Source: Candidatus Latescibacterota bacterium (GTDB lineage: Bacteria; Latescibacterota; UBA2968; UBA8231). Taken from it: a stretch of DNA of 64,000 nucleotides. Positions 3,153-31,639 of the stretch are shown here, one piece after another (the first letter of the stretch is position 1; the number at the start of each line of letters is the position of its first letter). Below the pieces are notes generated by a model. The model was not told the origin of the DNA and searched no databases. It worked only from the letters and a program-made list of their open reading frames with translations. The position numbers and the translations under genes are program-made. Where the stretch lies: NCBI GenBank assembly GCA_965203355.1, contig OZ241889.1:3744001-3808000 (forward strand), given 5' to 3'.

Positions 3153-3182
3153 AGGCCGCTTACTACGGCGGCAACCGCACGC

Positions 3183-3257
3183 AGTGGCCAGTAGCCAGTG
3201 GCCAGTAGCCAGTGGCCGGGACGTGGACTGACCACCGACCACTGACCACCGACCACC
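3183..3257. repeat. Intergenic heptamer tandem repeats forming two imperfect inverted arms
   Basis: (AGTRGCC)x5 followed by (ACYGACC)x4; the arms are approximate reverse complements. Confidence 0.8.
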
Positions 3258-3272
3258 AACCCAGAGGTTTTT

Positions 3273-4040
3273 ATGAGCATCTTGGACCTTTTCAAGCTCG
3301 ACGGCCAGACAGCCCTCGTCACCGGGTGCCGCCGAGGCATCGGGCGCGGGTTTGCGCAAGCACTGGCCGAGGCGGGCGCGGATATCGTCGGCGTCAGCGC
3401 CTCACTCGAAGCAGACTCCGAAGTCAGCAAAGACATTGCCGAGCGCGGCAAGCACTTCACAGGCTATGCCTGCGATTTCAGCGACCGAGCGGCCGTCCGC
3501 GCTTTCGTCGAGCAAGTCGCCGCCGAAGTCGGCCCAATCGACATCCTCATCAACAACGCCGGCACGATTCGGCGCGCTCCGGCAGAGGATCACGGAGACG
3601 AAGATTGGGACCACGTCATCGAGGTCAACTTAAACGCACAGTTCGCGCTGGCGCGGGCATTCGGCAAGCAGATGCTGTCCCGCGGCCGCGGCAAAATCGT
3701 CTTTACCGCTTCCGTGCTGACCTTCCAAGGCGGAATCACCGTGCCGGGCTACGCCGCGGCCAAGGGCGGCATCGGGCAGTTGACCATGGCGCTGGCCAAC
3801 GAATGGGCCGGGCGTGGAGTCAATGTCAACGCCATTGCGCCCGGCTACATCGCCACCGACAACAATCAAGCCCTGCGCGACGACCCCGTGCGCAACGAGC
3901 AGCTACTGGTGCGGATCCCAGCGGGCCGGTGGGGCACACCGGACGACTTAAAAGGCGCGGTAGTGTGGCTGTCGTCGCGTGCCGCCGACTACGTGCATGG
4001 GGCCATCGCAATCGTCGATGGCGGGTGGATGGGCCGCTGA
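3273..4040 (+). CDS. kduD: 2-dehydro-3-deoxy-D-gluconate 5-dehydrogenase-like SDR
   Basis: TGCRRGIG, NNAG, FQGGITVPGYAAAKGG, ANEWA and VDGGWMGR are typical of KduD. Confidence 0.85.
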   Translation: MSILDLFKLDGQTALVTGCRRGIGRGFAQALAEAGADIVGVSASLEADSEVSKDIAERGKHFTGYACDFSDRAAVRAFVEQVAAEVGPIDILINNAGTIRRAPAEDHGDEDWDHVIEVNLNAQFALARAFGKQMLSRGRGKIVFTASVLTFQGGITVPGYAAAKGGIGQLTMALANEWAGRGVNVNAIAPGYIATDNNQALRDDPVRNEQLLVRIPAGRWGTPDDLKGAVVWLSSRAADYVHGAIAIVDGGWMGR

Positions 4041-4041
4041 T

Positions 4042-6777
4042 ATGGAAGAGGCCGATCTGCTAGCATTTTGGGGCAAGACGCCGCGTGGTATTGAAAATTG
4101 CTCGGAAACAGTAAGCAATAATGCTGGAGGACAGCGGGACTATAAGCCCGTCTTACATCATTTAATGGATGTCGCCGCCGTCGCCCTACAATGGCAGCAA
4201 TTAAATCCCGCCCGTCTTGAGCGCGAAGCCGCTTTGCTGAAGGCGGATCCAGCGTGTTTAGCCAAGACTATGGCTTTTCTAGCTGGCGTACACGATCTCG
4301 GCAAATTTTCACGCAGCTTTCAGGCAAAGGTACCTGCATTGTGGCCAGATCGGGTGCTCGGCGGCTTGAATAGCGAGATCGCCGACCGAGGTCATTGGCG
4401 CAATACGGCTATCCTTCTCAGGGCCGAGCCAATCGCCAAAGAATTCACCAACCTGTTCCCTAGCATTTCCTGTGATCCTTTAGGACCGATCATTGCTGCT
4501 ATTGCGGGACACCATGGACAACCAACTAAAGCTGGAGAACACAACGCCCGTCCAAGCGAGTATCGGTCCGACCCAGATCTTATGGGACCATGTGTGGACG
4601 CGGCTCGTGCTACCTTTTGCATTCTCCGCAACCGTATAAATCCTTCACCGCTGACGTCCCTCAAAAAGCAAAAACAGTCGGCGCAGTGGTCTTGGCGTTT
4701 GTCGGGGTTTGTCACGCTGGCCGACTGGGTTGGCTCTGACACTGATTACTTCTCATTTGAATCGGTCAATATGCGGCTAGGCGATTATTGGAACTGGGCA
4801 CTTGCTCAGGCTGAAAAAGCCCTAAGGGGCAAGGGACTGCTTCCCCACTCCCCGGAACCTCGTCCAAGTTATGCTCGTTTCGCGCCGCAAGCTGCTGCCC
4901 GCCCGAGGCCCGTGCAGAAAAAAGCCGCCGCCGTACCGCTTTCGGATGGAGCACAACTATTCATTCTAGAGGATACTACCGGGGCGGGTAAGACCGAAGC
5001 GGCTATTATGCTCGCGGCCCGGATGATGGCCGCAGGCAAGGGCGAGGGCCTGTACTTTGCGTTGCCGACTATGGCGACGGCCAACGCTATGTACGAGCGG
5101 CTGGCAGAGACATACCGGATGTTGTTTGAATCGGGAGAGTACGCTCCCTCGCTTGTCTTGGCGCATGGCCGATCTAATCTGTCCGAGGCGTTCCTCACCA
5201 TCGTCAAATCTTCGGATATGGCCAATGGCAGCGAGGATGAAACCGCATCCGCTTCTTGTACCCAGTGGGTTGCAGACGACCGTCGGAAAGCCTTTTACGC
5301 AGATGTTGGAGCGGGGACGATTGACCAAGCCTTTCTCTCGATTCTCCCCAAAAAACATTTAACGCTGCGCCAATACGGGCTAGCGGGTCGCATTCTTATC
5401 GTTGATGAGGCCCATTGTTTTGATGCTTATATGGAAGAGGAACTTTCCAAGTTGCTGGAACTGCACGCCCAAAATGGCGGATCTGCTATCGTACTCTCGG
5501 CGACCTTGTCTTTGGAGCAGCGTCGCGATATGGCAGAGGCGTTTGCCAAGGGCCTCAACTTGCGAGACCCAGACGAGCTTAGCGATCAACTGTGCAGTAA
5601 AGCGTACCCGCTGCTCACTTCGGTTGCGCTTGGCAATCCACGAGAAATCAAACAGGAATTCGATTCAGCATTGCGTCGCACTGTAACGGTAGAACGCCTG
5701 CCCGACCGCACAACCGCCGAGACACGGGCTCTTTCCGCTGCAAAAAAGGGAGCGGCCGTGCTGGTCATTTGCAACGCCGTAGATGAGGCCATTGCCGTGC
5801 ATGTCTCACTTTCAGGACAGATGGATCACCCGGAGAAGGTACACTTGTTCCACGCTCGGTTTGCCCATGGCGATAGACAAGATATAGAAGCAGACGTATT
5901 GCGCCGATTCGGGCGCGACGCCAAAGCGACGGACCGGGCCGGCCATATCCTTGTGGCCACACAGGTAGTTGAGCAAAGCCTCGACCTCGATTTTGATCTC
6001 GTCATTTCGGACCTCGCACCAGTGGACCTCATCATTCAGCGGGCCGGCCGGATGTGGCGGCATTTGGACAAGCGCCCGCCGGAAAGCCGTCCGGTGGAGA
6101 ATCCGCATATCCTCGTGGTCTCGCCGGACCCGGATCAGGTAGAAGACAAAAAATGGCTTGAGCCGGTACTGGGCAAAGCGGCCTTTGTCTATCAACATGG
6201 CGGCGTAATGTGGCGCAGTGCGAAGGCCCTATTCGACGATGGACGTATTGACACACCGGAAAGTTTTCGCCCGTTGATTGAGCGCGTTTACGATAATGAA
6301 GATGTGCCACCCATTCTCGAAGGATCGCAGATCGAGGACGAAGGGAAGGAAATGTCCAGCCACTCGCTAGGTCAGTTAAACGTTATTGACTTAGAGGATG
6401 GCTATGGTTCTCTTCCGACGGAATTGAGCGGTACCGAGGACATAGGTACTCGGCTAGGAGAGCCGACCGTCACGTTGCGATTGGCTCGCGTAGAGGCGGG
6501 ACGTCTTGTTCCTTGGCGCGAGGCGTCCGACGATCTCAGCCGGGCTTGGGCCTTGTCCGAAATCCGAGTGCGGGATAAAGCTGCGCCGCCAACCGGAGAT
6601 CAAGAACTTCAGGATCAGGCCAAAAGCGACTGGCCAGCGTGGGAACGCAACGAGATATGTATAGCAGTGGTAGAAGGGGATGGTAGGGTTCGATTGGAAG
6701 GGACGGAACCGGACAGCGGCTATTTCACCTACTGCCATCGGGTCGGTTTCAGACGTTTCCCGCAGACGCGGGAATGA
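4042..6777 (+). CDS. cas3: CRISPR-associated helicase/nuclease Cas3 (HD + SF2 helicase)
   Basis: HD motifs HLMDV and HDLGK, TGAGKTEA, DEAH, ATQVVEQSLD, QRAGR; first gene of the cas operon. Confidence 0.97.
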   Translation: MEEADLLAFWGKTPRGIENCSETVSNNAGGQRDYKPVLHHLMDVAAVALQWQQLNPARLEREAALLKADPACLAKTMAFLAGVHDLGKFSRSFQAKVPALWPDRVLGGLNSEIADRGHWRNTAILLRAEPIAKEFTNLFPSISCDPLGPIIAAIAGHHGQPTKAGEHNARPSEYRSDPDLMGPCVDAARATFCILRNRINPSPLTSLKKQKQSAQWSWRLSGFVTLADWVGSDTDYFSFESVNMRLGDYWNWALAQAEKALRGKGLLPHSPEPRPSYARFAPQAAARPRPVQKKAAAVPLSDGAQLFILEDTTGAGKTEAAIMLAARMMAAGKGEGLYFALPTMATANAMYERLAETYRMLFESGEYAPSLVLAHGRSNLSEAFLTIVKSSDMANGSEDETASASCTQWVADDRRKAFYADVGAGTIDQAFLSILPKKHLTLRQYGLAGRILIVDEAHCFDAYMEEELSKLLELHAQNGGSAIVLSATLSLEQRRDMAEAFAKGLNLRDPDELSDQLCSKAYPLLTSVALGNPREIKQEFDSALRRTVTVERLPDRTTAETRALSAAKKGAAVLVICNAVDEAIAVHVSLSGQMDHPEKVHLFHARFAHGDRQDIEADVLRRFGRDAKATDRAGHILVATQVVEQSLDLDFDLVISDLAPVDLIIQRAGRMWRHLDKRPPESRPVENPHILVVSPDPDQVEDKKWLEPVLGKAAFVYQHGGVMWRSAKALFDDGRIDTPESFRPLIERVYDNEDVPPILEGSQIEDEGKEMSSHSLGQLNVIDLEDGYGSLPTELSGTEDIGTRLGEPTVTLRLARVEAGRLVPWREASDDLSRAWALSEIRVRDKAAPPTGDQELQDQAKSDWPAWERNEICIAVVEGDGRVRLEGTEPDSGYFTYCHRVGFRRFPQTRE

Positions 6778-6822
6778 GCCGTATTGATCCGTCGGAAGAG
6801 TTTTTGATTAAGGAGGAATCCA

Positions 6823-8457
6823 ATGCCAATAACTTTCAATTTACTTACCGATGCTTTTTTTCCAGTCGTCACGCGCCATGAAGCACAAAAGTGGTGTGCC
6901 TTCCCCGAATTGGTGGCCGGGGCCAACGGCTCGGAAGGAGACTACCCAGTTGAGTTCAACTGGCCACGACCGGATTTTAATATGGCCTGCTTTGAGTTCT
7001 GCGTCGGCGTGATTGCACTGACCTTTGACATCCGCGACGAGGACGAGTGGCGTGAATTTTGGACCAATCCACCGAATCGAGACGGGCTCGCCCAAAAGCT
7101 GGCCCCCTTCGTCCACGCCTTTGATCTCAACGGCGAAGGGCCGCGCTTTCTGCAGGATTTTGAACCTCTTTCAGGCGCAGCGACCGATATTGAATCACTG
7201 CTTATTGACACCCCCGGACAAAAAGGACGCCGCGAAAACTCGGATCTGCTAACTCACCGCAACCGCTATGCTGTTCTTGGCTTGCCGGCTGCGGCTATGG
7301 CCCTGTACTCCCTGCAAGCCTACGCGCCATCTGGCGGCGCCGGGAACCTTACCTCCATGCGCGGGGGTGGCCCATTGACCACGCTGGTCGTTCCGGTCGC
7401 TCAAGACGATGCGCTTCCCGTGCCTTTGTGGCGCAAAATTTTTGCTAATGTAGTACCCGATGAACGGCTGAGAATAGGCGAGCTGCCCAAAGCCTTGCCT
7501 TGGCTGGCCCCAACTCCTTCGAAGGGGCACACGGTGTCTTTGGCAGACGCCCACCCCTTGCAGACGTATTTCGGGATGCCGCGGCGCATTCGGTTGGGTT
7601 TTTCTAGCGAGCCGGGGATCTGTCCCATGACCGGATGGAAAGGGCCACAGGTCACCGAATTTGTTCAGCAGCCTTGGGGCACAAAATATGGAACATGGCA
7701 GCATCCGCTGACGCCGTATCGCCGCCAGAAAGAGGCGGGGGAGCCGTATTCAGCCAAACCAAAATCGGGGCGCTTTGGCTATGGTGCTTGGGTCGCCGCC
7801 ACAGTAGGTAGCAAGGAGGGCAAGCTGGCTGAACAGGCCAAAAATATCAAGATCGCCAAGAATGCTCGCCGCTACGCCTTCGCAGCCGATGCCCGGGTTC
7901 GGGTCGGCGGTTGGGCCATGAACAACATGGAAGCAATCACCTATATCTTCGCCGAAGAGCCTTTACATCTGGCGAAGAAGGAGGAGCAACAACAAGCACT
8001 CGACGATCGTGCCCGAGATTTCTCCGAAGCCGCCGACCAAGCGGTTTTTCTGTTGTTAGCAGCCTTGAAAAAGGCACTTTTCAGCGGCCAGAAGAATACC
8101 TCAAATGATAGGGGAATTCTCGACCAAGCACGGACAGATTTCTTTGGCACAACGGAGAATGCATTTCACCAACTGCTCGACGACTTGCTCCAAGCAATGC
8201 CCGAAGATGGTTCCTTAGCCGACATGAACGATTATGCCCAGCACTGGCTAAGGATCATGCACAGCGCAGCTCTTGCTACCTTCGACCGCCTAGCACCAGT
8301 GCCCTTGCAAGACGCCGAGAAGGCCAAGGCTGTCGTCAACGCCTACGGCATCTTGAACGCAACCTTTGCTGGCCGGACCAAGGAGAGCAAAAAACTTTAT
8401 GGCAAACTCCAACTTCCTTTGCCCAAAAAACCTCAAACCCAAAAGGAGGCCCTTTAA
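6823..8457 (+). CDS. cas8e: Type I-E Cascade large subunit Cas8e (Cse1/CasA)
   Basis: FNLL..FFPV N-terminus, RFLQD, SGGAG..TSMRGGGP, MPRRIRL, WQHPLTPY; operon position. Confidence 0.95.
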   Translation: MPITFNLLTDAFFPVVTRHEAQKWCAFPELVAGANGSEGDYPVEFNWPRPDFNMACFEFCVGVIALTFDIRDEDEWREFWTNPPNRDGLAQKLAPFVHAFDLNGEGPRFLQDFEPLSGAATDIESLLIDTPGQKGRRENSDLLTHRNRYAVLGLPAAAMALYSLQAYAPSGGAGNLTSMRGGGPLTTLVVPVAQDDALPVPLWRKIFANVVPDERLRIGELPKALPWLAPTPSKGHTVSLADAHPLQTYFGMPRRIRLGFSSEPGICPMTGWKGPQVTEFVQQPWGTKYGTWQHPLTPYRRQKEAGEPYSAKPKSGRFGYGAWVAATVGSKEGKLAEQAKNIKIAKNARRYAFAADARVRVGGWAMNNMEAITYIFAEEPLHLAKKEEQQQALDDRARDFSEAADQAVFLLLAALKKALFSGQKNTSNDRGILDQARTDFFGTTENAFHQLLDDLLQAMPEDGSLADMNDYAQHWLRIMHSAALATFDRLAPVPLQDAEKAKAVVNAYGILNATFAGRTKESKKLYGKLQLPLPKKPQTQKEAL

Positions 8458-8987
8458 TGCAGCATGTTGAAACGCTCACTGATGCCGTGGAAAGCTGGAG
8501 GCAAGAGCTTCATGATCCAGATCACGGAAACCGGGGATCCCGAGCGAGACTAAAACGCTGCGACAGCATATTAGACGCTCTGTTGGAGCCAGAAACCCAC
8601 AGGCTGATCGCCCGTGTTCATGAACGGGCTACTAGCTATATACCTGAGCGGAAACTCCCCATACTAGCCTTGGTCTTGGCACGGGTTGAGCATACGGCCA
8701 ATTCTCCCACTTTCGCTAAAGCCTTGGGCTTTACGTGGGAGAATACCATTCCCACCAGCGACACCCGTCCTCGCCTGTCGCCCATGCGCTTCAGTGCGCT
8801 GCTCAGGGCCGGCGCGGATGCGGATATGGACGACTTCGCACGAGCATTGCGCCGGGCTCTGGCCATCCTAGGCGACACTCGATTTAACGTCCGCCGCTTT
8901 ATCCGCGACATGCTTTTCTTTAACGATCAGACCCGGCGCACCTGGACCTTTGAGTACTATCATACGCGCCAAAACGACACCTTATAA
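8457..8987 (+). CDS. cas11: Type I-E Cascade small subunit Cas11 (Cse2/CasB)
   Basis: RARLKRC, RLSPMRFSALL, W..EYY terminus; lies between cas8e and cas7. Confidence 0.9.
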   Translation: MQHVETLTDAVESWRQELHDPDHGNRGSRARLKRCDSILDALLEPETHRLIARVHERATSYIPERKLPILALVLARVEHTANSPTFAKALGFTWENTIPTSDTRPRLSPMRFSALLRAGADADMDDFARALRRALAILGDTRFNVRRFIRDMLFFNDQTRRTWTFEYYHTRQNDTL

Positions 8988-9015
8988 AACAACCACCCCA
9001 AAAGGAGACTCAATT

Positions 9016-10125
9016 ATGAGCCGCTTTGTGCAGATGCACCTTCTGACAGCCTATCCGCCATCCAACCCCAACCGAGACGACCTCGGCCGTCCCAAAACCG
9101 CCGTTATCGGCGGCGTATCACGCATGCGTATTTCCAGCCAGTCGCTTAAACGAGCCATCCGCACCGACGAGGCTTTCCGGGCTACCCTGATGGGGAATCT
9201 GGGTGAGCGCACTCAGCGCATGGGCGACAAGGTGCGAGCACACCTACTTGAACAGGGTGCGTCTGAGGACAAGGCCCTCGAAATCGCGCGAAAAGTCGCA
9301 GACCTATTTGGGAAGGTAAAAGGGAAAGACGACGATAAACCCTATATCGAACAGCTAGCTTTCATCTCACCGGAAGAACGCAATGCGGCCTTCAAGTTGG
9401 CAGAAAGAGTACTTGCCGGGGAGTGCCCGCTTCTGCTTAAAAAGGATAAGTTGACGAAACAAGAAGAGAAGGAGTTGAAAGAGTTGACGAAACAAGTCCT
9501 ACGCAGTGCCGACGGTGCTGTTGACATCGCCATGTTCGGTCGCATGTTAGCCGACAACCCAGACTTCAATCGCGATGCCGCTGTACAGGTAGCTCACGCC
9601 TTCACCACTAACCGGGTCGATGTAGAAGACGATTACTACACGGCTGTTGACGACTTGAAGACCTCGGCAGAGGATGCGGGCGCGGGATTCATCGGCGAGG
9701 CTGGTTTCGGCGCGGGCGTCTTCTACCTGTACATCTGCGTGAACCGAGATCTGCTTTTGCAAAACCTTTCGGGTGATACAGACTTGGCAGGCCGAGCACT
9801 CGCCGCCCTAGTACGCGCTGCGGCGACCGCCTCTCCTTCTGGCAAGAAAAACAGCTACGCCAATCACGTACGCGCCGAATACCTGTTGCTGGAGCGCGGG
9901 GACGCCCAACCTCGCAGCTTGGCCAGTGCCTTCACTAAGCCGGTAGGTTCGGGCGATCAACTCGCAGAGTCCGTAGAGAAGTTGAAGAAGCAGCGCACCG
10001 ACTTTGAGAAAGCCTATGGTAAGGATTGGAGCGACGATATTGAACTTCACGTAGGCAAAGAAGCCAGTGCTACGCTGGATCAACTGGCGACCTTCGCAGC
10101 GCAAGAGATGGAGCGTTTGGCATGA
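9016..10125 (+). CDS. cas7: Type I-E Cascade backbone Cas7 (Cse4/CasC)
   Basis: PSNPNRDDLGRPK, RISSQSLKR, DIAMFGRM, DYYTAVDDL; AGGAG RBS before ATG 9016. Confidence 0.97.
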   Translation: MSRFVQMHLLTAYPPSNPNRDDLGRPKTAVIGGVSRMRISSQSLKRAIRTDEAFRATLMGNLGERTQRMGDKVRAHLLEQGASEDKALEIARKVADLFGKVKGKDDDKPYIEQLAFISPEERNAAFKLAERVLAGECPLLLKKDKLTKQEEKELKELTKQVLRSADGAVDIAMFGRMLADNPDFNRDAAVQVAHAFTTNRVDVEDDYYTAVDDLKTSAEDAGAGFIGEAGFGAGVFYLYICVNRDLLLQNLSGDTDLAGRALAALVRAAATASPSGKKNSYANHVRAEYLLLERGDAQPRSLASAFTKPVGSGDQLAESVEKLKKQRTDFEKAYGKDWSDDIELHVGKEASATLDQLATFAAQEMERLA

Positions 10126-10826
10126 GTGCATGGCTGATCGTCACCCTTGCCGCACCCATGGCCAGCTTCGGCGAAGAGGCGGGCAATGTACGGCGTGGCA
10201 CGACCGACAGGCCGGCACGATCAGCCCTATTAGGGCTGGCTGGTGCGGCACTAGGCATTGATCGCGCCGATCCAGAGGGACAGCGGGCACTTGCTGCCTC
10301 CTTCCGCGTCGCTACTCGCACACTGTGCGCCGGAACATTGGCGACGGATTTTCACACTTACCAATCGCTGCCTTCGGCCAAGGGGCGTCCCCGCACTCGG
10401 GGAGATGCACTGGCTCGTTCCGCGGACCTCGCGACCCGTATCACCTACCGCGAGTACCGCGTGGATGTGCATTATCAGGCGGCGTACCGAGCCCGCTCAG
10501 GTGGGCAATACTCGTTGTGGGATCTCAACGCCGGGTTTGAGAAACCGGCTTATACATTGTATTTAGGACGCAAGTCTTGCCCACTATCGCGCCCACTCGC
10601 GCCGGAGATCATTGAGGCGCAAACCATCATTGAGGCGTTCAAGCACTATAGCGACCAGTCGAATGGCCTAATTGCCGTGGAAGATCGGGCGGACCTCGGC
10701 TCTCCCCACGCTCCCTTGCGCACGCGCCTGCGAATGGACGAGCCGGGCGACCGCACGAGTTGGCAGTTCGGGCAACGGCGCGAATACGAATACGTTCCCA
10801 CCGACAGCGAGGAGGCTTTGCAATGA
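10122..10826 (+). CDS. cas5: Type I-E Cas5 (CasD)
   Basis: APMASFG, SALLGLAGAALG, DFHT, LYLGRKSCP. Confidence 0.96.
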   Translation: MSAWLIVTLAAPMASFGEEAGNVRRGTTDRPARSALLGLAGAALGIDRADPEGQRALAASFRVATRTLCAGTLATDFHTYQSLPSAKGRPRTRGDALARSADLATRITYREYRVDVHYQAAYRARSGGQYSLWDLNAGFEKPAYTLYLGRKSCPLSRPLAPEIIEAQTIIEAFKHYSDQSNGLIAVEDRADLGSPHAPLRTRLRMDEPGDRTSWQFGQRREYEYVPTDSEEALQ

Positions 10827-11554
10827 ATGGACCCCTTCACTTCTCACGTCTTACGTTACGGCGCGACGCCTCAGTAGTTCCCTTGCTCCAAGTCCTTCAA
10901 CCAGCGAATTCATCTGAGCGTCTTGCTGTAGATCACCGGCTGATCTGGACGGTCATTCCAGAAGAAGTGCGTACTGAAGTGGAGCAGAGCCGGACTGCCG
11001 GTACGCCTAAATCCGCGTTTCTTTGGCGGGCCGACCGCCAGCGCGGGCGGTATTATCTGCTCGGCCCCAAGCCTTTGGAAAATTCCTTCTTCACTATCGA
11101 GACGAAACCCTTCGAGCCGGCACTATCGCCCGGCGACAGATTAGCGTTTGATCTGCGCCTTAACGCTACAGTTGATCGCAAGGTTGGCGTGGATAGTAGG
11201 GGAAAGGCCATTCGGCAACGCTGCGATGTGGCTATGGACCTGCTCAAGGCGGAGGTGAAACTCGATCGCGCCGCGGCTCGGACGCGGTGCGCTAACAAGG
11301 CGGCCTACAACTGGCTAAAAACGCAGGCCGCGAAACACGGATTCCACCTTGATACTAACACCCTGCGGCTGATAGGCTATCGCGCCGAGCGTTTTGCGCG
11401 GCAGAGTGGGCGGTTCGGTACGTTGGGCATCTTCGATCTCAAAGGTGCCCTTATCATAAACGAACCCAATTTGTTTCTGTCCCGTCTTCGGCAAGGCTTT
11501 GGGCGTGGCAAGGCATTTGGCTGCGGCCTAATGCTCATACGCAGGATCGCTTGA
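10823..11554 (+). CDS. cas6e: Type I-E crRNA processing nuclease Cas6e (Cse3/CasE)
   Basis: HRLIW, F.LRLNAT, Gly-rich GFGRGKAFGCGLM; ATGA overlap with cas5. Confidence 0.96.
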   Translation: MNGPLHFSRLTLRRDASVVPLLQVLQPANSSERLAVDHRLIWTVIPEEVRTEVEQSRTAGTPKSAFLWRADRQRGRYYLLGPKPLENSFFTIETKPFEPALSPGDRLAFDLRLNATVDRKVGVDSRGKAIRQRCDVAMDLLKAEVKLDRAAARTRCANKAAYNWLKTQAAKHGFHLDTNTLRLIGYRAERFARQSGRFGTLGIFDLKGALIINEPNLFLSRLRQGFGRGKAFGCGLMLIRRIA

Positions 11555-12507
11555 TGGCTAGCCTTGACAGAATGCCGGGGGCTCCGCCCCCCAAACCCAT
11601 CCCCATAAAGGACCGTACCTCCATCGTTTTTGTGGAGAAAGGGCAACTCGACGTACTCGACGGGGCTTTTGTACTCGTAGATATAAAGGGAGTGCGGACA
11701 CACATCCCGGTCGGCGGGTTGGCTTGCATAATGCTTGAGCCAGGTGCTCGGATCAGTCATGCTGCGGTGGCACTCGCGGCCCGGGTTGGCACTTTGCTGA
11801 TATGGGTCGGCGAGGCCGGGGTGCGCATGTACGCGGCCGGTCAACCAGGAGGTGCCCGGTCCGACAGGCTCCTATGGCAGTGCCGACTCGCGCTTGATCC
11901 TGATGCTCGGCTAAAGATCGTGCGGCGAATGTATCAGATCCGATTTGGCGAGCGAGCACCGCAACGCCGTTCTATTGAGCAGCTTCGCGGAATCGAAGGA
12001 GTACGGGTGCGGACGCTTTATGAGAATTTAGCGCGTCAGTTTGGAGTACAGTGGAAAAGACGCAGTTACGATCCTTCGGATTGGAACTTCTCCGACGTGC
12101 CCAATCGCTGCCTTTCGGCTGCAACTGCTTGCCTCTACGGTATTACGGAAGCCGCTGTGCTCGCGGCTGGGTATGCTCCAGCAATCGGCTTTTTACATTC
12201 TGGTAAACCTCTCTCCTTCGTGTACGACATCGCCGATTTGTTCAAGTTTGAAACGGCAGTGTCAACAGCGTTTCGCATTGCGGGACAGTGCGAGAAGGGG
12301 CGTTTAAGTGCTGCTGAATCGGTGCGCACGGTGCGCTTGGCGTGTCGGGACACGTTCCGCAAAACCAATCTGCTCAAGCGACTGATTCCGACTATCGAAG
12401 ATGTGCTCTCAGCAGGGGAGTTGAAGCCGCCCGATCCGCCGAAAGATGCGGTAGGCCCGGCCTTTCCCGATCCATCTTTAAGCGGAGATGAGGGCCATAG
12501 AGGATGA
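11554..12507 (+). CDS. cas1: Type I-E Cas1 integrase
   Basis: PKPIPIKDR, LEPGARISH, LRGIEG.RVR, GFLHSG, FVYDIADL; exact start uncertain (11551/11554/11572). Confidence 0.97.
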   Translation: MASLDRMPGAPPPKPIPIKDRTSIVFVEKGQLDVLDGAFVLVDIKGVRTHIPVGGLACIMLEPGARISHAAVALAARVGTLLIWVGEAGVRMYAAGQPGGARSDRLLWQCRLALDPDARLKIVRRMYQIRFGERAPQRRSIEQLRGIEGVRVRTLYENLARQFGVQWKRRSYDPSDWNFSDVPNRCLSAATACLYGITEAAVLAAGYAPAIGFLHSGKPLSFVYDIADLFKFETAVSTAFRIAGQCEKGRLSAAESVRTVRLACRDTFRKTNLLKRLIPTIEDVLSAGELKPPDPPKDAVGPAFPDPSLSGDEGHRG

Positions 12508-12782
12508 TGGTAGTGGTAACCAATAATGTGCCGCCGCGTCTGCGAGGCCGGCTTGCGGTTTGGCTGCTAGAACTTCGGGCCGGTGTCTATATCGGCAACT
12601 ACTCGGCAAAGACTCGGGCCATGATCCGCGACAATGTGTACGAGCTCATCGGCGACGGTGATGCTGTGCTCGCGTGGGCCGCCCCCAATGACGCGGGGTT
12701 TGAATTTGAAACCTTTGGTACAAACCGCCGGGTACCCGTGGATTTCGATGGTCTTCGCCTCGTATCTTTTTTACCTAAATGA
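12504..12782 (+). CDS. cas2: Type I-E Cas2
   Basis: PPRLRGRLAVWLLELRAGVYIG, VDFDGLRLVSF. Confidence 0.97.
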   Translation: MMVVVTNNVPPRLRGRLAVWLLELRAGVYIGNYSAKTRAMIRDNVYELIGDGDAVLAWAAPNDAGFEFETFGTNRRVPVDFDGLRLVSFLPK

Positions 12783-12885
12783 GTCTTTTCTCGGCAGACG
12801 TGAGATGGTGAATCAAGGAATAAATAGTCGGTACCTATTTTGAACAGTATATAACCTAAACTGTAGCAGTCAGTTACAATTATGT
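12783..12885 (+). promoter_or_regulatory. CRISPR leader
   Basis: AT-rich ~100 bp between cas2 and the first repeat, with a possible IHF-like site (TAGCAGTCAGTTA) near the repeat. Confidence 0.8.
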
Positions 12886-15800
12886 ATGTTCCCCGCACAC
12901 GCGGGGATGAGCCGACGGTCCCAGTCCACCGTTTCGGGCATTTGGGATGTTCCCCGCACACGCGGGGATGAGCCGGATGCGATTAGCACTACGCTCTACA
13001 CCGCGCCATGTTCCCCGCACACGCGGGGATGAGCCGGTGAAATAGATGAAAACCAGAACGCAAACAACATGTTCCCCGCACACGCGGGGATGAGCCGTCG
13101 GCATTGTTCCAATAGATACGGATGGCTCCATGTTCCCCGCACACGCGGGGATGAGCCGCAGCGGCTTTGGGCGCAAAACCCGGAGGTCAAATGTTCCCCG
13201 CACACGCGGGGATGAGCCGTGTTTTTTTTTCCCCCCGTCGACGGGGCGCGTATGTTCCCCGCACACGCGGGGATGAGCCGTCCGGCGAACTGGCTCAAAA
13301 TATGCCCGCTATATGTTCCCCGCACACGCGGGGATGAGCCGGCTGGAGCACTCCGGCTGCCTCTCTGGTACTCATGTTCCCCGCACACGCGGGGATGAGC
13401 CGGTTCATGTCGACCACATCGTCCCGCGCTCGCAATGTTCCCCGCACACGCGGGGATGAGCCATTGTAGATCCTGTAGATCCAATTGGGTCATGAATGTT
13501 CCCCGCACACGCGGGGATGAGCCTATACACAGCGCATTACGGGGCGCAAGTGTTTTATGTTCCCCGCACACGCGGGGATGAGCCGGAAAATAGTGCCCTT
13601 CCGTTTATCGACAAGGGATGTTCCCCGCACACGCGGGGATGAGCCGGACACGCTCCAGACCCGCACGGCCGTGACCGTATGTTCCCCGCACACGCGGGGA
13701 TGAGCCGGGTACGATAGCCCCGTTGGCGTCGGTTACCGGATGTTCCCCGCACACGCGGGGATGAGCCGCCATTGAGTATAAACCCGAAGAAGAAGATGGA
13801 ATGTTCCCCGCACACGCGGGGATGAGCCGGTGGTGCGCCCGGCCGTCAAGGACGTGATGCGATGTTCCCCGCACACGCGGGGATGAGCCGGATGTTATTG
13901 GCGATCTCGCCGGCATTAGCTCATGTTCCCCGCACACGCGGGGATGAGCCGGTATGGGAGTTCATCGGCGTTTTAGGCGAGGGATGTTCCCCGCACACGC
14001 GGGGATGAGCCGGCCACCTGCATCTGCATATGCTCTCTATCCATATGTTCCCCGCACACGCGGGGATGAGCCGCAGTACGTCCTGGGCTCTATTATCGAG
14101 GATCCATGTTCCCCGCACACGCGGGGATGAGCCGAACAGCGAGGGGCTGTTGGTCAACTATGCTTTATGTTCCCCGCACACGCGGGGATGAGCCGTCGTG
14201 CCTGGGTAGAGAATGTTCATCTCCGAGATGTTCCCCGCACACGCGGGGATGAGCCGCCCATCGTACCGCTTGTAATGCCATCGCCGCGATGTTCCCCGCA
14301 CACGCGGGGATGAGCCGAGGATATGCCCGAAGGAAACCCACCTGAGGATATGTTCCCCGCACACGCGGGGATGAGCCGGCCCCGAAGAAATCGTCAGGGT
14401 CCGGTGACGCATGTTCCCCGCACACGCGGGGATGAGCCGGCTCTCTCGGTAGACGTGCCGATATTACGACCATGTTCCCCGCACACGCGGGGATGAGCCG
14501 TAGCCAGGCGCGCGCGCAAAAATGCGCGCACGATGTTCCCCGCACACGCGGGGATGAGCCGTGGGATAGGGTTCGTCGTCATCGTCCGCAAAAATGTTCC
14601 CCGCACACGCGGGGATGAGCCGTGTATCGGGTCATGATTACCTCCTGCTATCGGATGTTCCCCGCACACGCGGGGATGAGCCGGCGCTGGTATAGGCCGT
14701 CGGGCAATCCCGCCCATGTTCCCCGCACACGCGGGGATGAGCCGACGCTGACCGCCACTGTAATCGTCGTCGTCGTATGTTCCCCGCACACGCGGGGATG
14801 AGCCGTGGCCCGCCGGTCGCCATTCTATTTTCAGCGAATGTTCCCCGCACACGCGGGGATGAGCCGGCCATTGGCCGACGCCTAGATGCAGTTCTTGAAT
14901 GTTCCCCGCACACGCGGGGATGAGCCGCACCACGCTTTTGAGAACTGCCATCTAACTACATGTTCCCCGCACACGCGGGGATGAGCCGCCGGCGCCACAG
15001 AACAAGCGTCGTCCGTCGAAATGTTCCCCGCACACGCGGGGATGAGCCGCCGCCAGGCACGCAGACCCATACACCGAGTATATGTTCCCCGCACACGCGG
15101 GGATGAGCCGAGTATGCCGACTTGGAAACGGAATGTTGGGCGATGTTCCCCGCACACGCGGGGATGAGCCGAGGGCGATGCCTACGATGGCTTGTTGGCT
15201 CTGATGTTCCCCGCACACGCGGGGATGAGCCATCACCGGGCTAGCTTCGTCGGGCAATACGGTCATGTTCCCCGCACACGCGGGGATGAGCCGTCTTTCG
15301 GCAAATCCACAGTCGAACGCTAATTATGTTCCCCGCACACGCGGGGATGAGCCGGCCAGTCAGGTCGGCGGAGTGCCTTGGCAAATATGTTCCCCGCACA
15401 CGCGGGGATGAGCCGGCCATGTCGAGCGCGGTGCGTTGACGCCGACCATGTTCCCCGCACACGCGGGGATGAGCCGGCGACCAACGCCGCGGATGCCAAT
15501 GACTACGAATGTTCCCCGCACACGCGGGGATGAGCCGGAGAAATCTATGTCCAGGTTTAATCGTCGGCGATGTTCCCCGCACACGCGGGGATGAGCCGCA
15601 CGGCCGCACAATCGCGGATATAACGCCCTCATGTTCCCCGCACACGCGGGGATGAGCCGCCGCCAAGCCCAAGCCAAGCCAAGCCAAGCCCAATGTTCCC
15701 CGCACACGCGGGGATGAGCCGCCGCCTACCAAGCCGCCAAGCCCGCCAAGCCAATGTTCCCCGCACACGCGGGGATGAGCCGCGGAATTTGACCACTACC

Positions 15801-18800
15801 ACATCCGCTTGGAGATGTTCCCCGCACACGCGGGGATGAGCCGGTCTGGTGAGATGCTCGGGAGCAAAAAGAAGAATGTTCCCCGCACACGCGGGGATGA
15901 GCCGGCTGGAGGTACTCGGGAGACACCACCCAGGACATGTTCCCCGCACACGCGGGGATGAGCCGTAGCGACTTGGTAGCGGCTTGGCGGCTTGGCGGGC
16001 TTGGCTTGGATGTTCCCCGCACACGCGGGGATGAGCCGACTTGGTCGCGGAGGTTACTGATTACGCGTATATGTTCCCCGCACACGCGGGGATGAGCCGC
16101 GCCATCCCAAGCCCAAGACCACGCCCAAGCCATGTTCCCCGCACACGCGGGGATGAGCCGCGCCAAGCCCCAAGCCAGCCAATAGCCAAGCCATGTTCCC
16201 CGCACACGCGGGGATGAGCCGTATCGGCTCGACCAGGAAGCCGACCCGACTAAATGTTCCCCGCACACGCGGGGATGAGCCGTAGAAATGTGCTCCGATT
16301 GTCTCTGCCCTGGAATGTTCCCCGCACACGCGGGGATGAGCCGTCTTTGATGTCTTTCTTTTTGTCTTTCTCGTGATGTTCCCCGCACACGCGGGGATGA
16401 GCCGAGGCAAACAGCGAAACGGCTATGGTCGCTGACATGTTCCCCGCACACGCGGGGATGAGCCGACGTCGCGCGGCGTTCAACTTTGGTTTGTCGGATG
16501 TTCCCCGCACACGCGGGGATGAGCCGAAGTCCTTGTTCGTCTTCTCCGTGTTGCTCTGATGTTCCCCGCACACGCGGGGATGAGCCAGGTGCTGTCGGAA
16601 TCCGGCTCGGCGTTGAAAAATGTTCCCCGCACACGCGGGGATGAGCCGATGAACCCGATTACCCCCCCCACATATCGCGTATGTTCCCCGCACACGCGGG
16701 GATGAGCCGGATGCCCTCGGTCGCCGACAAGATAGGCCGCGATGTTCCCCGCACACGCGGGGATGAGCCGCTCAACAAAAGGAGAATTTGTTCTCGGATG
16801 AAATGTTCCCCGCACACGCGGGGATGAGCCGTTGGCCTTGACGCAGTTGGAGTGTGCGCCCGAATGTTCCCCGCACACGCGGGGATGAGCCGGTCTTGCT
16901 TTCACCCTGATTTGAGACCTTCACATGTTCCCCGCACACGCGGGGATGAGCCGGTCGGCGTCGTCTTGGTCGCCGAACGTTGGTAATGTTCCCCGCACAC
17001 GCGGGGATGAGCCGGCGTGGTAGACGGCGGTGGCGGCCCCCACGGCATGTTCCCCGCACACGCGGGGATGAGCCGACGATGGGCGTGACATCATCGGAGA
17101 CATTGATATGTTCCCCGCACACGCGGGGATGAGCCGTCTGTCAACAAAAAAGATCATCTCATCGCGGAATGTTCCCCGCACACGCGGGGATGAGCCGTCT
17201 ACGTTAATTGCCGCTCTGGCCCCTAAAGGATGTTCCCCGCACACGCGGGGATGAGCCGGCGTACCATGTTGATCTTGCGGCGCGTGGTCAATGTTCCCCG
17301 CACACGCGGGGATGAGCCGGCGCCAGGGCCAATGACAACGCACAGGATCCGATGTTCCCCGCACACGCGGGGATGAGCCGCTCTCGACGCCCGGTCGTCT
17401 TGTTACCCTAAAATGTTCCCCGCACACGCGGGGATGAGCCGTTGAAGCTGAACGGACGGTCGTGGTCCGGCTTATGTTCCCCGCACACGCGGGGATGAGC
17501 CGTTTTCATTGATTCGCCTATTGGTACTCCGCTTATGTTCCCCGCACACGCGGGGATGAGCCGTTATTGTCCACCCCGCGCCTATCGTCCTGCCGATGTT
17601 CCCCGCACACGCGGGGATGAGCCGTCCACGGACCTGCTACCCCATTCACACGAAAGATGTTCCCCGCACACGCGGGGATGAGCCGGTTTGATGGGTTAGT
17701 TTCTTCGGCAAAAAGAAATGTTCCCCGCACACGCGGGGATGAGCCGCTCCGGATCAAAATCCGCCGCGCGACGGCGACATGTTCCCCGCACACGCGGGGA
17801 TGAGCCGGGTAAAGATCGCGTCCCGCCAGGTTACAAGGGATGTTCCCCGCACACGCGGGGATGAGCCAACTTCGAGATCAACCCAGAGGTTAGGGACAAG
17901 ATGTTCCCCGCACACGCGGGGATGAGCCGCTTGACCGGGAGGGCTCGGCCACCGCCACCATATGTTCCCCGCACACGCGGGGATGAGCCGCCGACACGTT
18001 CATTTTCCCGTTCTGGGTCTTCATGTTCCCCGCACACGCGGGGATGAGCCGTCCTTCCGCGCCGCCTGGCGGCGCTGGCCGACATGTTCCCCGCACACGC
18101 GGGGATGAGCCGCGCGGCTCTCTCCGACCCGGATCGAAAATACCATGTTCCCCGCACACGCGGGGATGAGCCTCCCCCAGCGCCCGGACGACCTCGGCGA
18201 TCAGGATGTTCCCCGCACACGCGGGGATGAGCCGTCAACGCCAAGGCGGGCGGCCGCCGCTTCGACATGTTCCCCGCACACGCGGGGATGAGCCGGCTCC
18301 GCCGGAGCGATCGCAATGACCTGCCGCATGTTCCCCGCACACGCGGGGATGAGCCGCCGCAGCTTTCAAATCGTAAAATGCATCAGTAATGTTCCCCGCA
18401 CACGCGGGGATGAGCCGACTACTACAACGATGTTCTCCAGATGGGCTGGATGTTCCCCGCACACGCGGGGATGAGCCGACCGGGCGCCTTGGTCGAAGAG
18501 GCCGTGTTCTATGTTCCCCGCACACGCGGGGATGAGCCGTGATACATGGTAAACGTCTTTTTAAGAGGCACATGTTCCCCGCACACGCGGGGATGAGCCG
18601 TCTCGGTGAGAATAAAACCCTTTTTGCCAGCAATGTTCCCCGCACACGCGGGGATGAGCCGCCGGCGTTGTAGCTGGCGAGGGCCCAATGGAGATGTTCC
18701 CCGCACACGCGGGGATGAGCCGCTATAGCGCGTCATAATAGCCCTCCTCGACTAATGTTCCCCGCACACGCGGGGATGAGCCGACGATGGTTCTGAGTCG

Positions 18801-19944
18801 CCGTTGCATGATGCGATGTTCCCCGCACACGCGGGGATGAGCCGCCCCTACATTTTTTCATCGTTTTGCTGCGCTCATGTTCCCCGCACACGCGGGGATG
18901 AGCCGGAACCGAAGGCATGAGCGAAACACTGGACCTAATGTTCCCCGCACACGCGGGGATGAGCCGCCTGCTCTAGCCCTTCCTCATGTGATAAAGGCAT
19001 GTTCCCCGCACACGCGGGGATGAGCCGCCTAGCCCCGTCGTTAGGCCTATCGTTGCCACCATGTTCCCCGCACACGCGGGGATGAGCCGGAGTTCCTGAT
19101 GTACGTACAACCCCAAATCGTATGTTCCCCGCACACGCGGGGATGAGCCGTCGGTGAGCTTGTCAAGCGAACCTTCCAAATAATGTTCCCCGCACACGCG
19201 GGGATGAGCCGGAAATCATCTGTTCGTTGAGTTGGGTCTCCGTATGTTCCCCGCACACGCGGGGATGAGCCGACAATGGATCGCCGATTTGAGGTCGGCG
19301 GGGCATGTTCCCCGCACACGCGGGGATGAGCCGGACGGCTTATCTCGCGCCGAATTCGCATTTTTGATGTTCCCCGCACACGCGGGGATGAGCCGCTGGT
19401 GGCTGGACCTGGAATCAAGACGCTCAAATGTTCCCCGCACACGCGGGGATGAGCCGGCGAGTACGCCGCGCAGCCAACTTAGCTTCAGATGTTCCCCGCA
19501 CACGCGGGGATGAGCCGTCAGTTTATCGCACTGAGACTTAGTAATACCAATGTTCCCCGCACACGCGGGGATGAGCCGCCGATGAAACTGCCGAAACATC
19601 TGGCTTAATCATGTTCCCCGCACACGCGGGGATGAGCCGCCAGCTTGGTATGCTCGACAAAGCCTATAACGATGTTCCCCGCACACGCGGGGATGAGCCG
19701 TGTGGGAAGTTGACGCGCATATCCATAACGCGATGTTCCCCGCACACGCGGGGATGAGCCGTGTTCTCGTGAGTTGCACAAGCGACAAGTCCTATGTTCC
19801 CCGCACACGCGGGGATGAGCCAGGGCTTGGATAATGGCCGACTCAGAGCCGGTCATGTTCCCCGCACACGCGGGGATGAGCCGCAAGACTGGTAAGTCGT
19901 TGTGCGACAACAACTATGTTCCCCGCACACGCGGGGATGAGCCG
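12886..19944 (+). CRISPR. Type I-E CRISPR array, ~116 repeats ATGTTCCCCGCACACGCGGGGATGAGCCG with mostly 32-bp spacers
   Basis: 29-bp repeat with CCCCGC/GCGGGG palindrome recurring at a 61-bp period from 12886 to 19916; count estimated from length/period. Confidence 0.99.
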
Positions 19945-23580: not shown

Positions 23581-23649
23581 TAGCACCGGCACAATACATT
23601 GATTGGTTCTAATTTGTCATTCTATCGCCTATTCGACATCTTTCATCTT

Positions 23650-29725: not shown

Positions 29726-29870
29726 GCGGACGCCAGCCGGACACCAAGCAGACGAAGGCCGACAGCACGAGGAGCGCAGCCACGAGCGGATAGCTGGACG
29801 GACGCACCGACGAGTAGTTGGACGGCAGCAGCAGCGCAACAGCGAAGCTATAACGCCAGAGGAAACCGCC

Positions 29871-30362
29871 ATGAGCAGAAGCATACTGATCGCAACTTTG
29901 ATCCTCGGAAGCCTGAGCTATGAAGCCCAAGCCAACAACGGCATAACGCCGTTACACGGCGCAGCAGCAACCGACGACGCCAAGATCGCAAAAACTTTGC
30001 TTGCACTTGGAGCAGACCCAAACGCCCAAGACAAGTACGGCAAGACGCCGTTACACTGGGCAGCATATAGGGACGCCATCGAAACCGCAGCGGTCTTGCT
30101 TGAGCATGGAGCAGACCCAAACGCCCAAGACAACGAAGGCAAAACGCCGTTACACCGGGTAGCAGAAGCAGATGCCATCGAAACCGCAGCGGTCTTGCTT
30201 GCACTTGGAGCAGACCCAAACGCCCAAGACAACGAAGGCAAAACGCCATTACACCGGGCAGCATATAGGGACGCCATCGAAACCGCAGCGGTCTTGCTTG
30301 AGCATGGAGCAGACCCAAACGCCCAAGACAACGAAGGCAAAACGCCGGCGGACTACCGATAA
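29871..30362 (+). CDS. Secreted ankyrin-repeat protein (4 repeats)
   Basis: Signal peptide (AQA site), repeated TPLH...LL..GADPNAQD encoded by near-identical 99-bp units. Confidence 0.92.
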   Translation: MSRSILIATLILGSLSYEAQANNGITPLHGAAATDDAKIAKTLLALGADPNAQDKYGKTPLHWAAYRDAIETAAVLLEHGADPNAQDNEGKTPLHRVAEADAIETAAVLLALGADPNAQDNEGKTPLHRAAYRDAIETAAVLLEHGADPNAQDNEGKTPADYR

Positions 30363-30478
30363 TCGTAATTACAGTTCGTATCACGCGAGGCGTGAAGCGT
30401 GTCTTGACAATGTAGTCGCCCGCCGCGACACTCTCTTTAGACTGGCACTTTCGCCGCCGCAAACAAGGAAGTTTTTCA

Positions 30479-30767
30479 ATGGAAGCGAGAGCGGAACGCG
30501 ACGCGCTGGGCTGCCGCAAAGCCCGCCGGCAAGCGCATTATGCCCGCCCGGTGGCCGTCAAGCTGAACCCCGAAGCCCGCGCCCGCGTGGAAGCGTTGAT
30601 ATATCTGATTTTATCGAGCTACATGGTCAACCGAAGCCCGCGCCCGCGTGGAAGCGTTGGCCGACTGCTACGGGCTTTCGCTGGCCGAGGTGCTGCGCCG
30701 CTGTGTCGCTTCGGGCTTTCCCCGCTTCAAGGACGCCCGCCGCAAGACAAAGGAGAATACCTTATGA
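30479..30767 (+). pseudogene. Ribbon-helix-helix (CopG-like) DNA-binding protein gene frameshifted by a 61-bp insertion
   Basis: Removing 30599-30659 restores a 75-aa ORF ...RPVAVKLNPEARARVEALADCYGLSLAEVLRRCVASG... whose stop overlaps the next ATG. Confidence 0.75.
30570..30659 (+). CRISPR. Putative ectopic single-spacer (neo-)CRISPR: 29-bp repeat, 32-bp spacer, 29-bp repeat
   Basis: CCGAAGCCCGCGCCCGCGTGGAAGCGTTG at 30570-30598 and 30631-30659 flanks ATATATCTGATTTTATCGAGCTACATGGTCAA; 17/29 ungapped identity to the array repeat. Confidence 0.7.
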
Positions 30768-31021
30768 ACGAACCTATAACGCAAGCCCAAGACCATGACC
30801 GACGTATTGGACGGCTGGAAGGCATCGCCGAGCAACTCACCGAACAAAACCGCCAGACCAACGCCCGACTGGACCGCATTGAGCAAGCCATCGCCGAGCA
30901 AGGCCGCCGCCTTGACGCGACCAACGCCCGCCTTGACTCGCTAACCCGCTGGCTGGTCGGCATGCAAATCGCCACCCTGCTAGCCCTCGGCACCCTCATT
31001 TTGGCGCGCTTGCCGGGCTAA
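30764..31021 (+). CDS. Small coiled-coil protein with C-terminal TM helix, copy 1 (DUF1640/XhlA-like architecture)
   Basis: AAGGAG RBS; RIGRLEG..EQ heptads and hydrophobic tail RWLVGMQIATLLALGTLIL. Confidence 0.8.
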   Translation: MNEPITQAQDHDRRIGRLEGIAEQLTEQNRQTNARLDRIEQAIAEQGRRLDATNARLDSLTRWLVGMQIATLLALGTLILARLPG

Positions 31022-31055
31022 AGGCCGGGCGGCGCAAGGCAAAGAAGAACACCTT

Positions 31056-31304
31056 ATGAGCGAACCGATTACGCAAGCCCAAGACCACGACCGCCGTATT
31101 GGACGGCTGGAAGGCATCGCCGAGCAACTCACCGAACAAAACCGCCAGACCAACGCCCGACTGGACCGCATTGAGCAAGCCATCGCCCTCCACATGGACG
31201 CGCTGCGGCAAGAACACCGCCGTGACTTTCGCTGGATAGTGGGCATTCAGCTAACGACCTTGCTAGCCCTCGGCACCTTGATTTTGTCGCGCTTGCCGGG
31301 CTAA
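31056..31304 (+). CDS. Small coiled-coil/TM protein, copy 2 (divergent centre)
   Basis: Tandem paralogue; central segment replaced by LHMDALRQEHRRDFRWIVGIQ. Confidence 0.8.
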   Translation: MSEPITQAQDHDRRIGRLEGIAEQLTEQNRQTNARLDRIEQAIALHMDALRQEHRRDFRWIVGIQLTTLLALGTLILSRLPG

Positions 31305-31338
31305 AGGCCGGGCGGCGCAAGACAAAGGAGCACACCGT

Positions 31339-31596
31339 ATGAACGAACCGATCACGCAAGCCCAAGACCATGACCGACGTATTGGACGGCTGGAAGGCAT
31401 CGCCGAGCAGCAAACCGAACAAAACCGCCAGACCAACGCCCGACTGGACCGCATTGAGCAAGCCATCGCCGAGCAAGGCCGCCGCATTGACGCAACCAAC
31501 GCTCGCCTTGATGCGCTCACCCGCTGGCTGGTCGGCATGCAAATCGCCACCCTGCTAGCCCTCGGCACCCTGATTTTGTCGCGCTTGCCGGGCTAA
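31339..31596 (+). CDS. Small coiled-coil/TM protein, copy 3
   Basis: Near-identical to copy 1; AAGGAG RBS. Confidence 0.8.
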   Translation: MNEPITQAQDHDRRIGRLEGIAEQQTEQNRQTNARLDRIEQAIAEQGRRIDATNARLDALTRWLVGMQIATLLALGTLILSRLPG

Positions 31597-31639
31597 AGGC
31601 CGGGCGCACAACAGTGGACAGCGGACAAAGGAGATCCAT

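Follow-up and report, generated by a model that had tools for sequence, protein, structure and literature searches.

Off-target integration by Cas1-Cas2 of the Escherichia coli type I-E CRISPR system was reportedly described in 2018 by Nivala, Shipman and Church (Nat Microbiol 3:310), the resulting loci being termed 'neo-CRISPR'. As cited in PMC7054753, PMC11788318 and 10.1101/148544, the work concerned off-target genomic integration by overproduced Cas1-Cas2 in E. coli; the last of these terms the evidence for such events in two other species 'circumstantial', and motifs resembling the binding site of the integration host factor (IHF) are said to favour the E. coli events (PMC9456107). In vitro, Cas1-Cas2 of Pyrococcus furiosus also integrates at non-CRISPR sites with repeat-like features (PMC6698737). 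No report of natural off-target integration within a gene was found in the literature that we searched. Here we describe a candidate for such an event in 64,000 nt of DNA of a Candidatus Latescibacterota bacterium (assembly GCA_965203355.1, contig OZ241889.1, positions 3,744,001 to 3,808,000 of the forward strand; the whole stretch is hereafter called the window), in which a small gene for a putative ribbon-helix-helix (RHH) regulator is split by a unit with the dimensions of a CRISPR repeat and spacer. We consider it quite probable that this gene was broken by natural off-target integration by Cas1-Cas2; the locus is a new natural instance of an experimentally known process, and no new mechanism is involved.

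The site resembles the E. coli neo-CRISPR loci in its subtype, in having a spacer-sized insert outside the array, in the repeat-length duplication of its target and in its partial likeness to the repeat. It differs from them in lying inside a coding gene, in coming from environmental runs of two studies and in having no IHF-like motif that could be found; moreover, whereas the E. coli loci arose in oligonucleotide-fed cultures overproducing Cas1-Cas2 (PMC7054753), the system here is a native one in an uncultured, sponge-associated member of the Latescibacterota. With canonical I-E acquisition, as set out by Goren et al. 2016 (PMC5039180), it shares a 28-nt duplication with a 33-nt spacer and the anchors GCGGG and CCCCGCG, which occur here as GCGTG and GCCCGCG at the same positions, but it has no leader, its target gene lies 10.6 kb past the array's distal end, and the likeness to the repeat extends to only 17 of 29 positions. 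The mini-arrays described in 2023 (PMC10120712) offer another parallel, as they too combine one spacer with two repeat-like sequences away from the main array, in a genome whose system looks active; they occupy intergenic regions of cas loci, however, stem from true repeats and are predicted to target cas promoters, whereas the repeat-like sequence here is native coding sequence of an unrelated gene. The P. furiosus system differs in being archaeal, of another type and studied on a plasmid in vitro.

The split gene and its duplicated segment

When the 45-aa 3' half of the split gene served as query in an exhaustive profile search, an intact homologue of 75 aa was recovered (P0001; E = 2e-10), and a follow-up search recovered a 75-aa paralogue of P0001 on the same contigs (P0006). 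The elements of the site are as follows:

30479-30598 (+): 5' half of the split RHH gene, 40 aa; shares 28 of 40 residues with P0001 (residues 1-40) and is 75% identical to P0006
30570-30598 (+): copy 1 of the target duplication, 29 nt long and identical to copy 2
30599-30630 (+): insert between the copies, 32 nt, 31% GC
30631-30659 (+): copy 2 of the duplicated target, an exact repeat that runs on into the intact 3' part of the RHH gene
30630-30767 (+): 3' half of the split RHH gene, 45 aa and a stop; shares 30 of 44 residues with P0001 (residues 32-75) and is 80% identical to P0006
30479-31021 (+): fusion frame of 180 aa from the list of open reading frames, in which the RHH N-terminus is followed by 55 out-of-frame residues and then by the coiled-coil membrane protein encoded downstream

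Examination of the site bears out the exact 29-bp repeat around a 32-bp AT-rich insert that the first-pass annotation of this DNA had reported. The two copies are spaced 61 nt start to start and cannot be extended in either direction, since the preceding base is c in copy 1 versus a in copy 2 and the following base a versus g; the GC content of the insert contrasts with the 60-61% of its flanks. When the array and the tandem gene repeats are set aside, the exact direct repeats of at least 18 nt found at short range in the window are those of this site and a single 18-nt pair at 37014. In 916 kb of related loci there are 37 rows of exact repeats (at least 20 nt, period 40-90), which on reading of the sequences are tandem-repeat tracts, and among these rows there is no unique sequence duplicated around an unrelated insert. 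Further duplications of this geometry, for which the first-pass annotation had proposed to scan the genome, were found in neither the window nor the related loci.

Both halves of the gene are colinear with the intact 75-aa homologues, and PEARARVEAL, the ten-residue segment that the duplicated 29-mer encodes, occurs a single time in P0001 and in P0006. The frame that runs from 30630 through copy 2 reads TEARARVEALADCYG... and aligns with residues 32-75 of P0001, and the stop of the 3' half overlaps the start of the next gene (ATGA). Given that the intact homologues carry the segment once and that the halves are colinear with them, the duplicated stretch is native coding sequence. Judged from these alignments, a 75-aa RHH gene has received the 61-nt unit as an insertion accompanied by duplication of the target site. 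Consistent with this, deletion of one unit would restore a 75-aa frame, both halves of which are colinear with the 75-aa homologues, as had been claimed from the first inspection. In Pfam comparisons P0006 passes the RHH_1 cut-off (22.7 versus 20.5) and P0001 lies just below it (20.3), and the two halves in the window individually give no RHH hit. More distant relatives of the gene are present in 3 of the 167 genomes of the phylum as open frames of 69-149 aa.

As 61 equals 3 x 20 + 1, residue 40 is followed by a +1 shift of the reading frame, which then continues into the next gene. The RHH_1 match of P0006 covers residues 27-57, which suggests that the helices lie mostly past residue 40 and that the insertion probably inactivates the regulator.

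The type I-E system and the repeat-like target

The I-E array that the first-pass annotation placed about 11 kb away has its distal end 10.6 kb from the insertion site and is accompanied by a complete adaptation module in cis, with the integrase genes 18 kb upstream of the site. The components of the locus are:

3979-11554 (+): cas3, cse1, cse2, cas7e, cas5e and cas6e, each recognized by NCBIfam equivalog or exception models, with Pfam in addition for Cas3
11551-12782 (+): cas1e and cas2e, the presumed integrase (NCBIfam)
12783-12885 (+): AT-rich leader between cas2 and the first repeat
12886-19944 (+): type I-E CRISPR array of 116 repeats

The type I-E gene set is complete from cas3 to cas2 (3979-12782), and its Cas1e and Cas2e are open frames of 318 and 92 aa that score 360 bits (NCBIfam cut-off 215.6) and 113 bits (cut-off 33.15), respectively. 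The repeats are near-identical over the long array, 111 of the 115 spacers are 32 nt long, and the spacings between repeats are 61 nt in 111 cases, 62 nt in 3 and 73 nt in 1; the earlier observation that the 29 + 32 = 61 geometry of the site equals that of the array therefore stands. In E. coli the true I-E repeat is 28 nt long, and the 29th base comes with the spacer from the protospacer-adjacent motif (PAM). The 29th base of the present repeat varies (G in 109 of the 116 repeats, A in 5 and T in 2), which fits a true repeat of 28 nt followed by a spacer-borne, PAM-derived base as in E. coli. Copy 1 is read here as a 28-nt target-site duplication (30570-30597) followed by G 30598 as the first base of the spacer, and this G together with the 32-nt insert makes a spacer-like unit of 33 nt.

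When the duplicated 29-mer and the array repeat are lined up in register on one strand, they agree at 17 of 29 positions, against 7 of 29 for the reverse complement and at most 11 for same-strand shifts between -6 and +6. Outside the array, at least 17 of 29 matches are reached in the window at 27 of 113,338 position-strands (2.4e-4), two of the 27 being the site's own copies. The likeness is centred on the palindromic core, as previously noted: 10 of the 12 inverted-repeat positions of the array repeat are matched, as opposed to 7 of the remaining 17, and at least 10 of 12 such matches are reached by 14 of the same 113,338 position-strands (1.2e-4). In the E. coli I-E system, according to PMC5039180, the inverted repeats are the chief determinants of adaptation, other regions of the repeat having at most a 3-fold effect, and the spacer is inserted 8 nt past the end of GCGGG and 16 nt past the end of CCCCGCG. 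The counterparts of these motifs at the site are GCGTG, which ends at position 20 (+8 = 28), and GCCCGCG, which ends at position 12 (+16 = 28), and hence both rulers predict insertion after position 28, the very point observed when G 30598 is counted as a spacer base. Because the boundaries of the duplication are set independently of the repeat, this agreement constitutes a genuine test, and the site passes it.

We infer that the enzyme was the native integrase, that the insert is of foreign origin and that the events took the following order. The type I-E Cas1e-Cas2e encoded 18 kb upstream would have inserted one prespacer, a 33-nt molecule made of the G and the 32 nt of AT-rich, presumably foreign DNA, at a wrong target, namely a 28-bp stretch of the small RHH gene that resembles the CRISPR repeat in the two anchor motifs of the inverted repeats. 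A first strand transfer may have taken place at 30569/30570 and a second on the opposite strand 28 nt downstream, at a position that would be set by the two rulers anchored on GCCCGCG...GCGTGG. Filling of the gaps would then have duplicated the 28 nt to give a repeat-like/spacer/repeat-like arrangement with a 61-bp unit. The outcome would be an insertional mutation in which the regulator loses most of its helices and what remains of it is fused to the membrane-protein gene that follows.

A clean natural case of this kind would show a real mutational cost of CRISPR adaptation in the wild, in the form of a broken gene, and would show that the two-ruler rule of E. coli also predicts the cut points of the I-E system of a distant phylum. 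It would furthermore show GC-rich imperfect palindromes in coding sequence to be possible landing sites, and would provide a search image for I-E genomes, namely an exact duplication of 28-29 nt with a period of 61 nt.

Relatives, junctions and rival explanations

The closest relatives of an aldo/keto reductase encoded next to the site (89-95% aa identity) are found in 19 metagenome-assembled genomes, most of them labelled Candidatus Latescibacterota; the listed runs with an uncoded organism label are sponge metagenomes. At 17 of these 19 loci (L001-L019) both flanks are kept and about 570-715 bp take the place of window positions 29731-31628; the right side is different in L017 and L018. The island at 29731-31628 is composed of an ankyrin-repeat gene, in which a 99-nt repeat occurs four times, the RHH gene and a tandem set of three 292-nt units. 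Since the RHH gene belongs to this variable island, no orthologous empty site was recoverable from the relatives. Positions 30360-30770 are matched by none of the 80 loci found via the aldo/keto reductase, the 45-aa RHH half gives weak hits in 1 of 100 relatives and none stronger, and a word-index protein search for the RHH gene returned nothing of 24-79 aa. The empty allele that the first-pass annotation had recommended looking for has protein-level counterparts in P0001 and P0006 with their single copy of the segment, and an allelic empty site was not recovered.

Seven public runs from four studies, none of them recorded as RNA, contain part of the 4-kb neighbourhood of the site, and contigs of four of these runs were compared over 30340-30900. 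In run X7 a contig of 408 nt covers 30401-30808 with no differences and no gaps, so that both junctions are bridged. The junctions are real DNA. As X7 comes from a different study than the best-matching runs X4-X6, from which the window itself may derive, the allele is present in runs of two studies. Run X5 contributes three contigs (30409-30598, 30569-30660 and 30631-30808) that overlap by 30 nt and show no differences, and in none of which are there 31 letters on both sides of a junction. Assuming that the contigs were built from a 31-mer graph, the positions of these breaks hint at a second context for 'c + 29-mer' and for '29-mer + g', for example an uninterrupted site. Runs X1 and X2 contain a relative with few differences in which both flanks are covered, and neither depth over 30606-30624 nor a joint across the insert is reported; this gap is an uncovered stretch and is no evidence either way on an empty allele.

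Some further contigs share the 29-mer. A separate contig of X7 shares about 33 nt around it and has a different left flank (an 11-letter loose end before 30562), and depth arithmetic implies a similar contig in X5 at about 30562-30594, its extent being deduced from depth bins. These side contigs point to a further paralogue of the RHH gene in the samples.

It could be supposed that the unit is an artefact of assembly, or that an insertion sequence or a miniature element left it as a footprint or is present there with one of its ends, and the variability of the island at 29731-31628 between relatives might be taken to favour this, although nothing specific does. The X7 contig, from another study, spans both junctions without a difference, which argues against the artefact that the first-pass annotation had itself named as a danger. 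As for a mobile element, there are no terminal inverted repeats (0 inverted-repeat pairs in 30000-31200), and the 32-mer, with up to three mismatches allowed, has no second copy in the window and none in the 167 genomes of the phylum. Furthermore, insertion sequences usually make target duplications far shorter than 29 nt. We regard an explanation by either footprint or artefact as highly improbable.

Several results weigh against off-target integration by Cas1-Cas2, and some of them would favour a different process of insertion or repair, for instance filler DNA at a repaired break or staggered nicks 29 nt apart, whose agreement with a CRISPR unit would be a coincidence. The first of these is the want of a protospacer. 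The search for the insert and an adjoining AAG PAM that had been suggested came back empty: phages gave one partial record at chance level (22 nt, E = 4) and plasmids nine (at most 22 nt, E of at least 0.9), viral contigs and metagenome contigs held no exact match, and none of the 167 genomes of the phylum matched with up to three mismatches, so that the foreign origin of the insert and the AAG PAM stay presumptive. The controls fared alike, as 3 of 3 genuine array spacers have no exact match in the viral contigs and the array as a whole has no hit in phages or plasmids; given that genuine spacers are also blank in the same collections, the protospacer negative is uninformative. Against the 916 kb of related loci and the masked window, the array spacers gave partial matches of at most 25 nt and the insert none.

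The same alternative is favoured by the GC content of the insert, which is lower than that of all 115 array spacers (minimum 34%, mean 57%, with six spacers at 34-38%), and by the surroundings of the site, in which no leader-like sequence is seen by eye upstream and no IHF-like sequence is present. The E. coli IHF consensus WATCAANNNNTTR, which may not apply to this phylum, is absent near both the site and the leader; its one occurrence in the window, at 23592, is at chance level (shuffle mean 0.93). In addition, a frequency of 2.4e-4 per position-strand translates into a few thousand equally repeat-like sites in a genome of 5-6 Mb, and the likeness to the repeat thus accounts for the site being permitted and not for its being chosen. 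The native base after the target is also G, as a result of which the terminal G cannot distinguish a 28 + 33 from a 29 + 32 event. Finally, there is no strict empty allele, the island with the ankyrin-repeat and RHH genes being missing from its position in the 19 closest loci; DNA comparison with 5 related genomes did not recover the RHH gene; and none of 595 pattern matches to it in Joint Genome Institute metagenome contigs was confirmed.

A coincidence would, on the other side, have to be fourfold and independent, as it needs to supply the period of 61, the repeat-length duplication, a likeness of 2.4e-4 and both ruler distances. We also know of no repair or transposition process that yields a target duplication of 28-29 nt, and such an alternative origin of the unit appears improbable.

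Function of the unit and further features of the window

The first-pass annotation regarded the site as a natural neo-CRISPR, either an insertional mutation by Cas1-Cas2 or an array being born. The former is supported by the above observations; the latter is made less likely by the want of a stable hairpin in the repeat-like copies. Their predicted fold has an energy of -7.5 kcal/mol (z -0.12, like shuffled sequences) versus -14.3 kcal/mol (z -2.92) for the true repeat, and of the last 8 bases of the repeat, the region of the 3' handle, 4 are matched in the line-up. Given the lack of a stable hairpin, there is probably no working CRISPR RNA (crRNA), and on these predictions the neo-site is unlikely to act as a working new array. 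It likewise seems rather unlikely to us that the event is recent and still polymorphic in a wild symbiont population, forming the first step of a new CRISPR locus that is processed into crRNA and can be extended; the breaks in the X5 contigs are an indirect hint of such polymorphism, and in X7 a single contig passes through the site.

A related possibility is that the product of Cas1-Cas2 has been retained as useful, either as a mini-array producing a regulatory RNA or because selection favoured loss of the regulator and with it de-repression of the membrane-protein genes downstream. The unit is sense-oriented inside the gene and would therefore be transcribed with it, the allele occurs in runs of two studies, and two-repeat regulatory mini-arrays have been proposed for about 19% of I-E loci (PMC10120712). 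The known mini-arrays, however, sit within cas loci and keep their hairpins, as opposed to -7.5 versus -14.3 kcal/mol here; moreover, half of the final repeat bases are mismatched (4/8 match) and the spacer has no target in the window. Retention for a function is accordingly quite improbable, and insertional mutation by off-target Cas1-Cas2 integration remains the reading that we favour.

A solitary repeat-like sequence is present at 6753-6781 (+), at the 3' end of cas3 and 42 nt before cse1. It agrees with the repeat of the array in 25 of 29 bases, and two of its changes are compensatory and preserve a 7-bp hairpin (-11.9 kcal/mol, z -2.44). In I-E loci repeat-like sequences are enriched next to cas3, according to PMC10120712, and the solitary repeat fits this enrichment.

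Within the array, five spacers in the section 15660-16192 (starting at 15660, 15722, 15966, 16100 and 16161) are built of CCAAGCC-like units, and one CCAAGCC-like spacer is on the opposite strand and measures 44 nt rather than 32. The pattern has the look of a single repetitive target from which spacers were acquired repeatedly.

Downstream of the RHH gene lies the following tandem family:

30764-31596 (+): three tandem paralogous genes with a 292-nt unit, encoding coiled-coil proteins of 82-85 aa with a C-terminal hydrophobic segment

In Pfam the three paralogues gave sub-threshold matches alone (XhlA, DUF7310 and DUF7365), and in Rfam the window had no match at the gathering score. A stretch of 16-18 nt is common to the spacer at 16100 and the 5' end of the coiled-coil genes (at 31074-31089 in the window and at 881-898 in L001), perhaps as a chance effect of low complexity. 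Contig depth over 30796-30833, within these genes, rises to about 25 times that of the flanks in the compared runs, suggesting many related copies in these metagenomes; contig depth sums over organisms and is not copy number. At the other end of the CRISPR-Cas locus, 7-nt units of the CAGTGGC and GACCACC types make up two short tandem arrays at 3182-3261, just upstream of the cas3 region.

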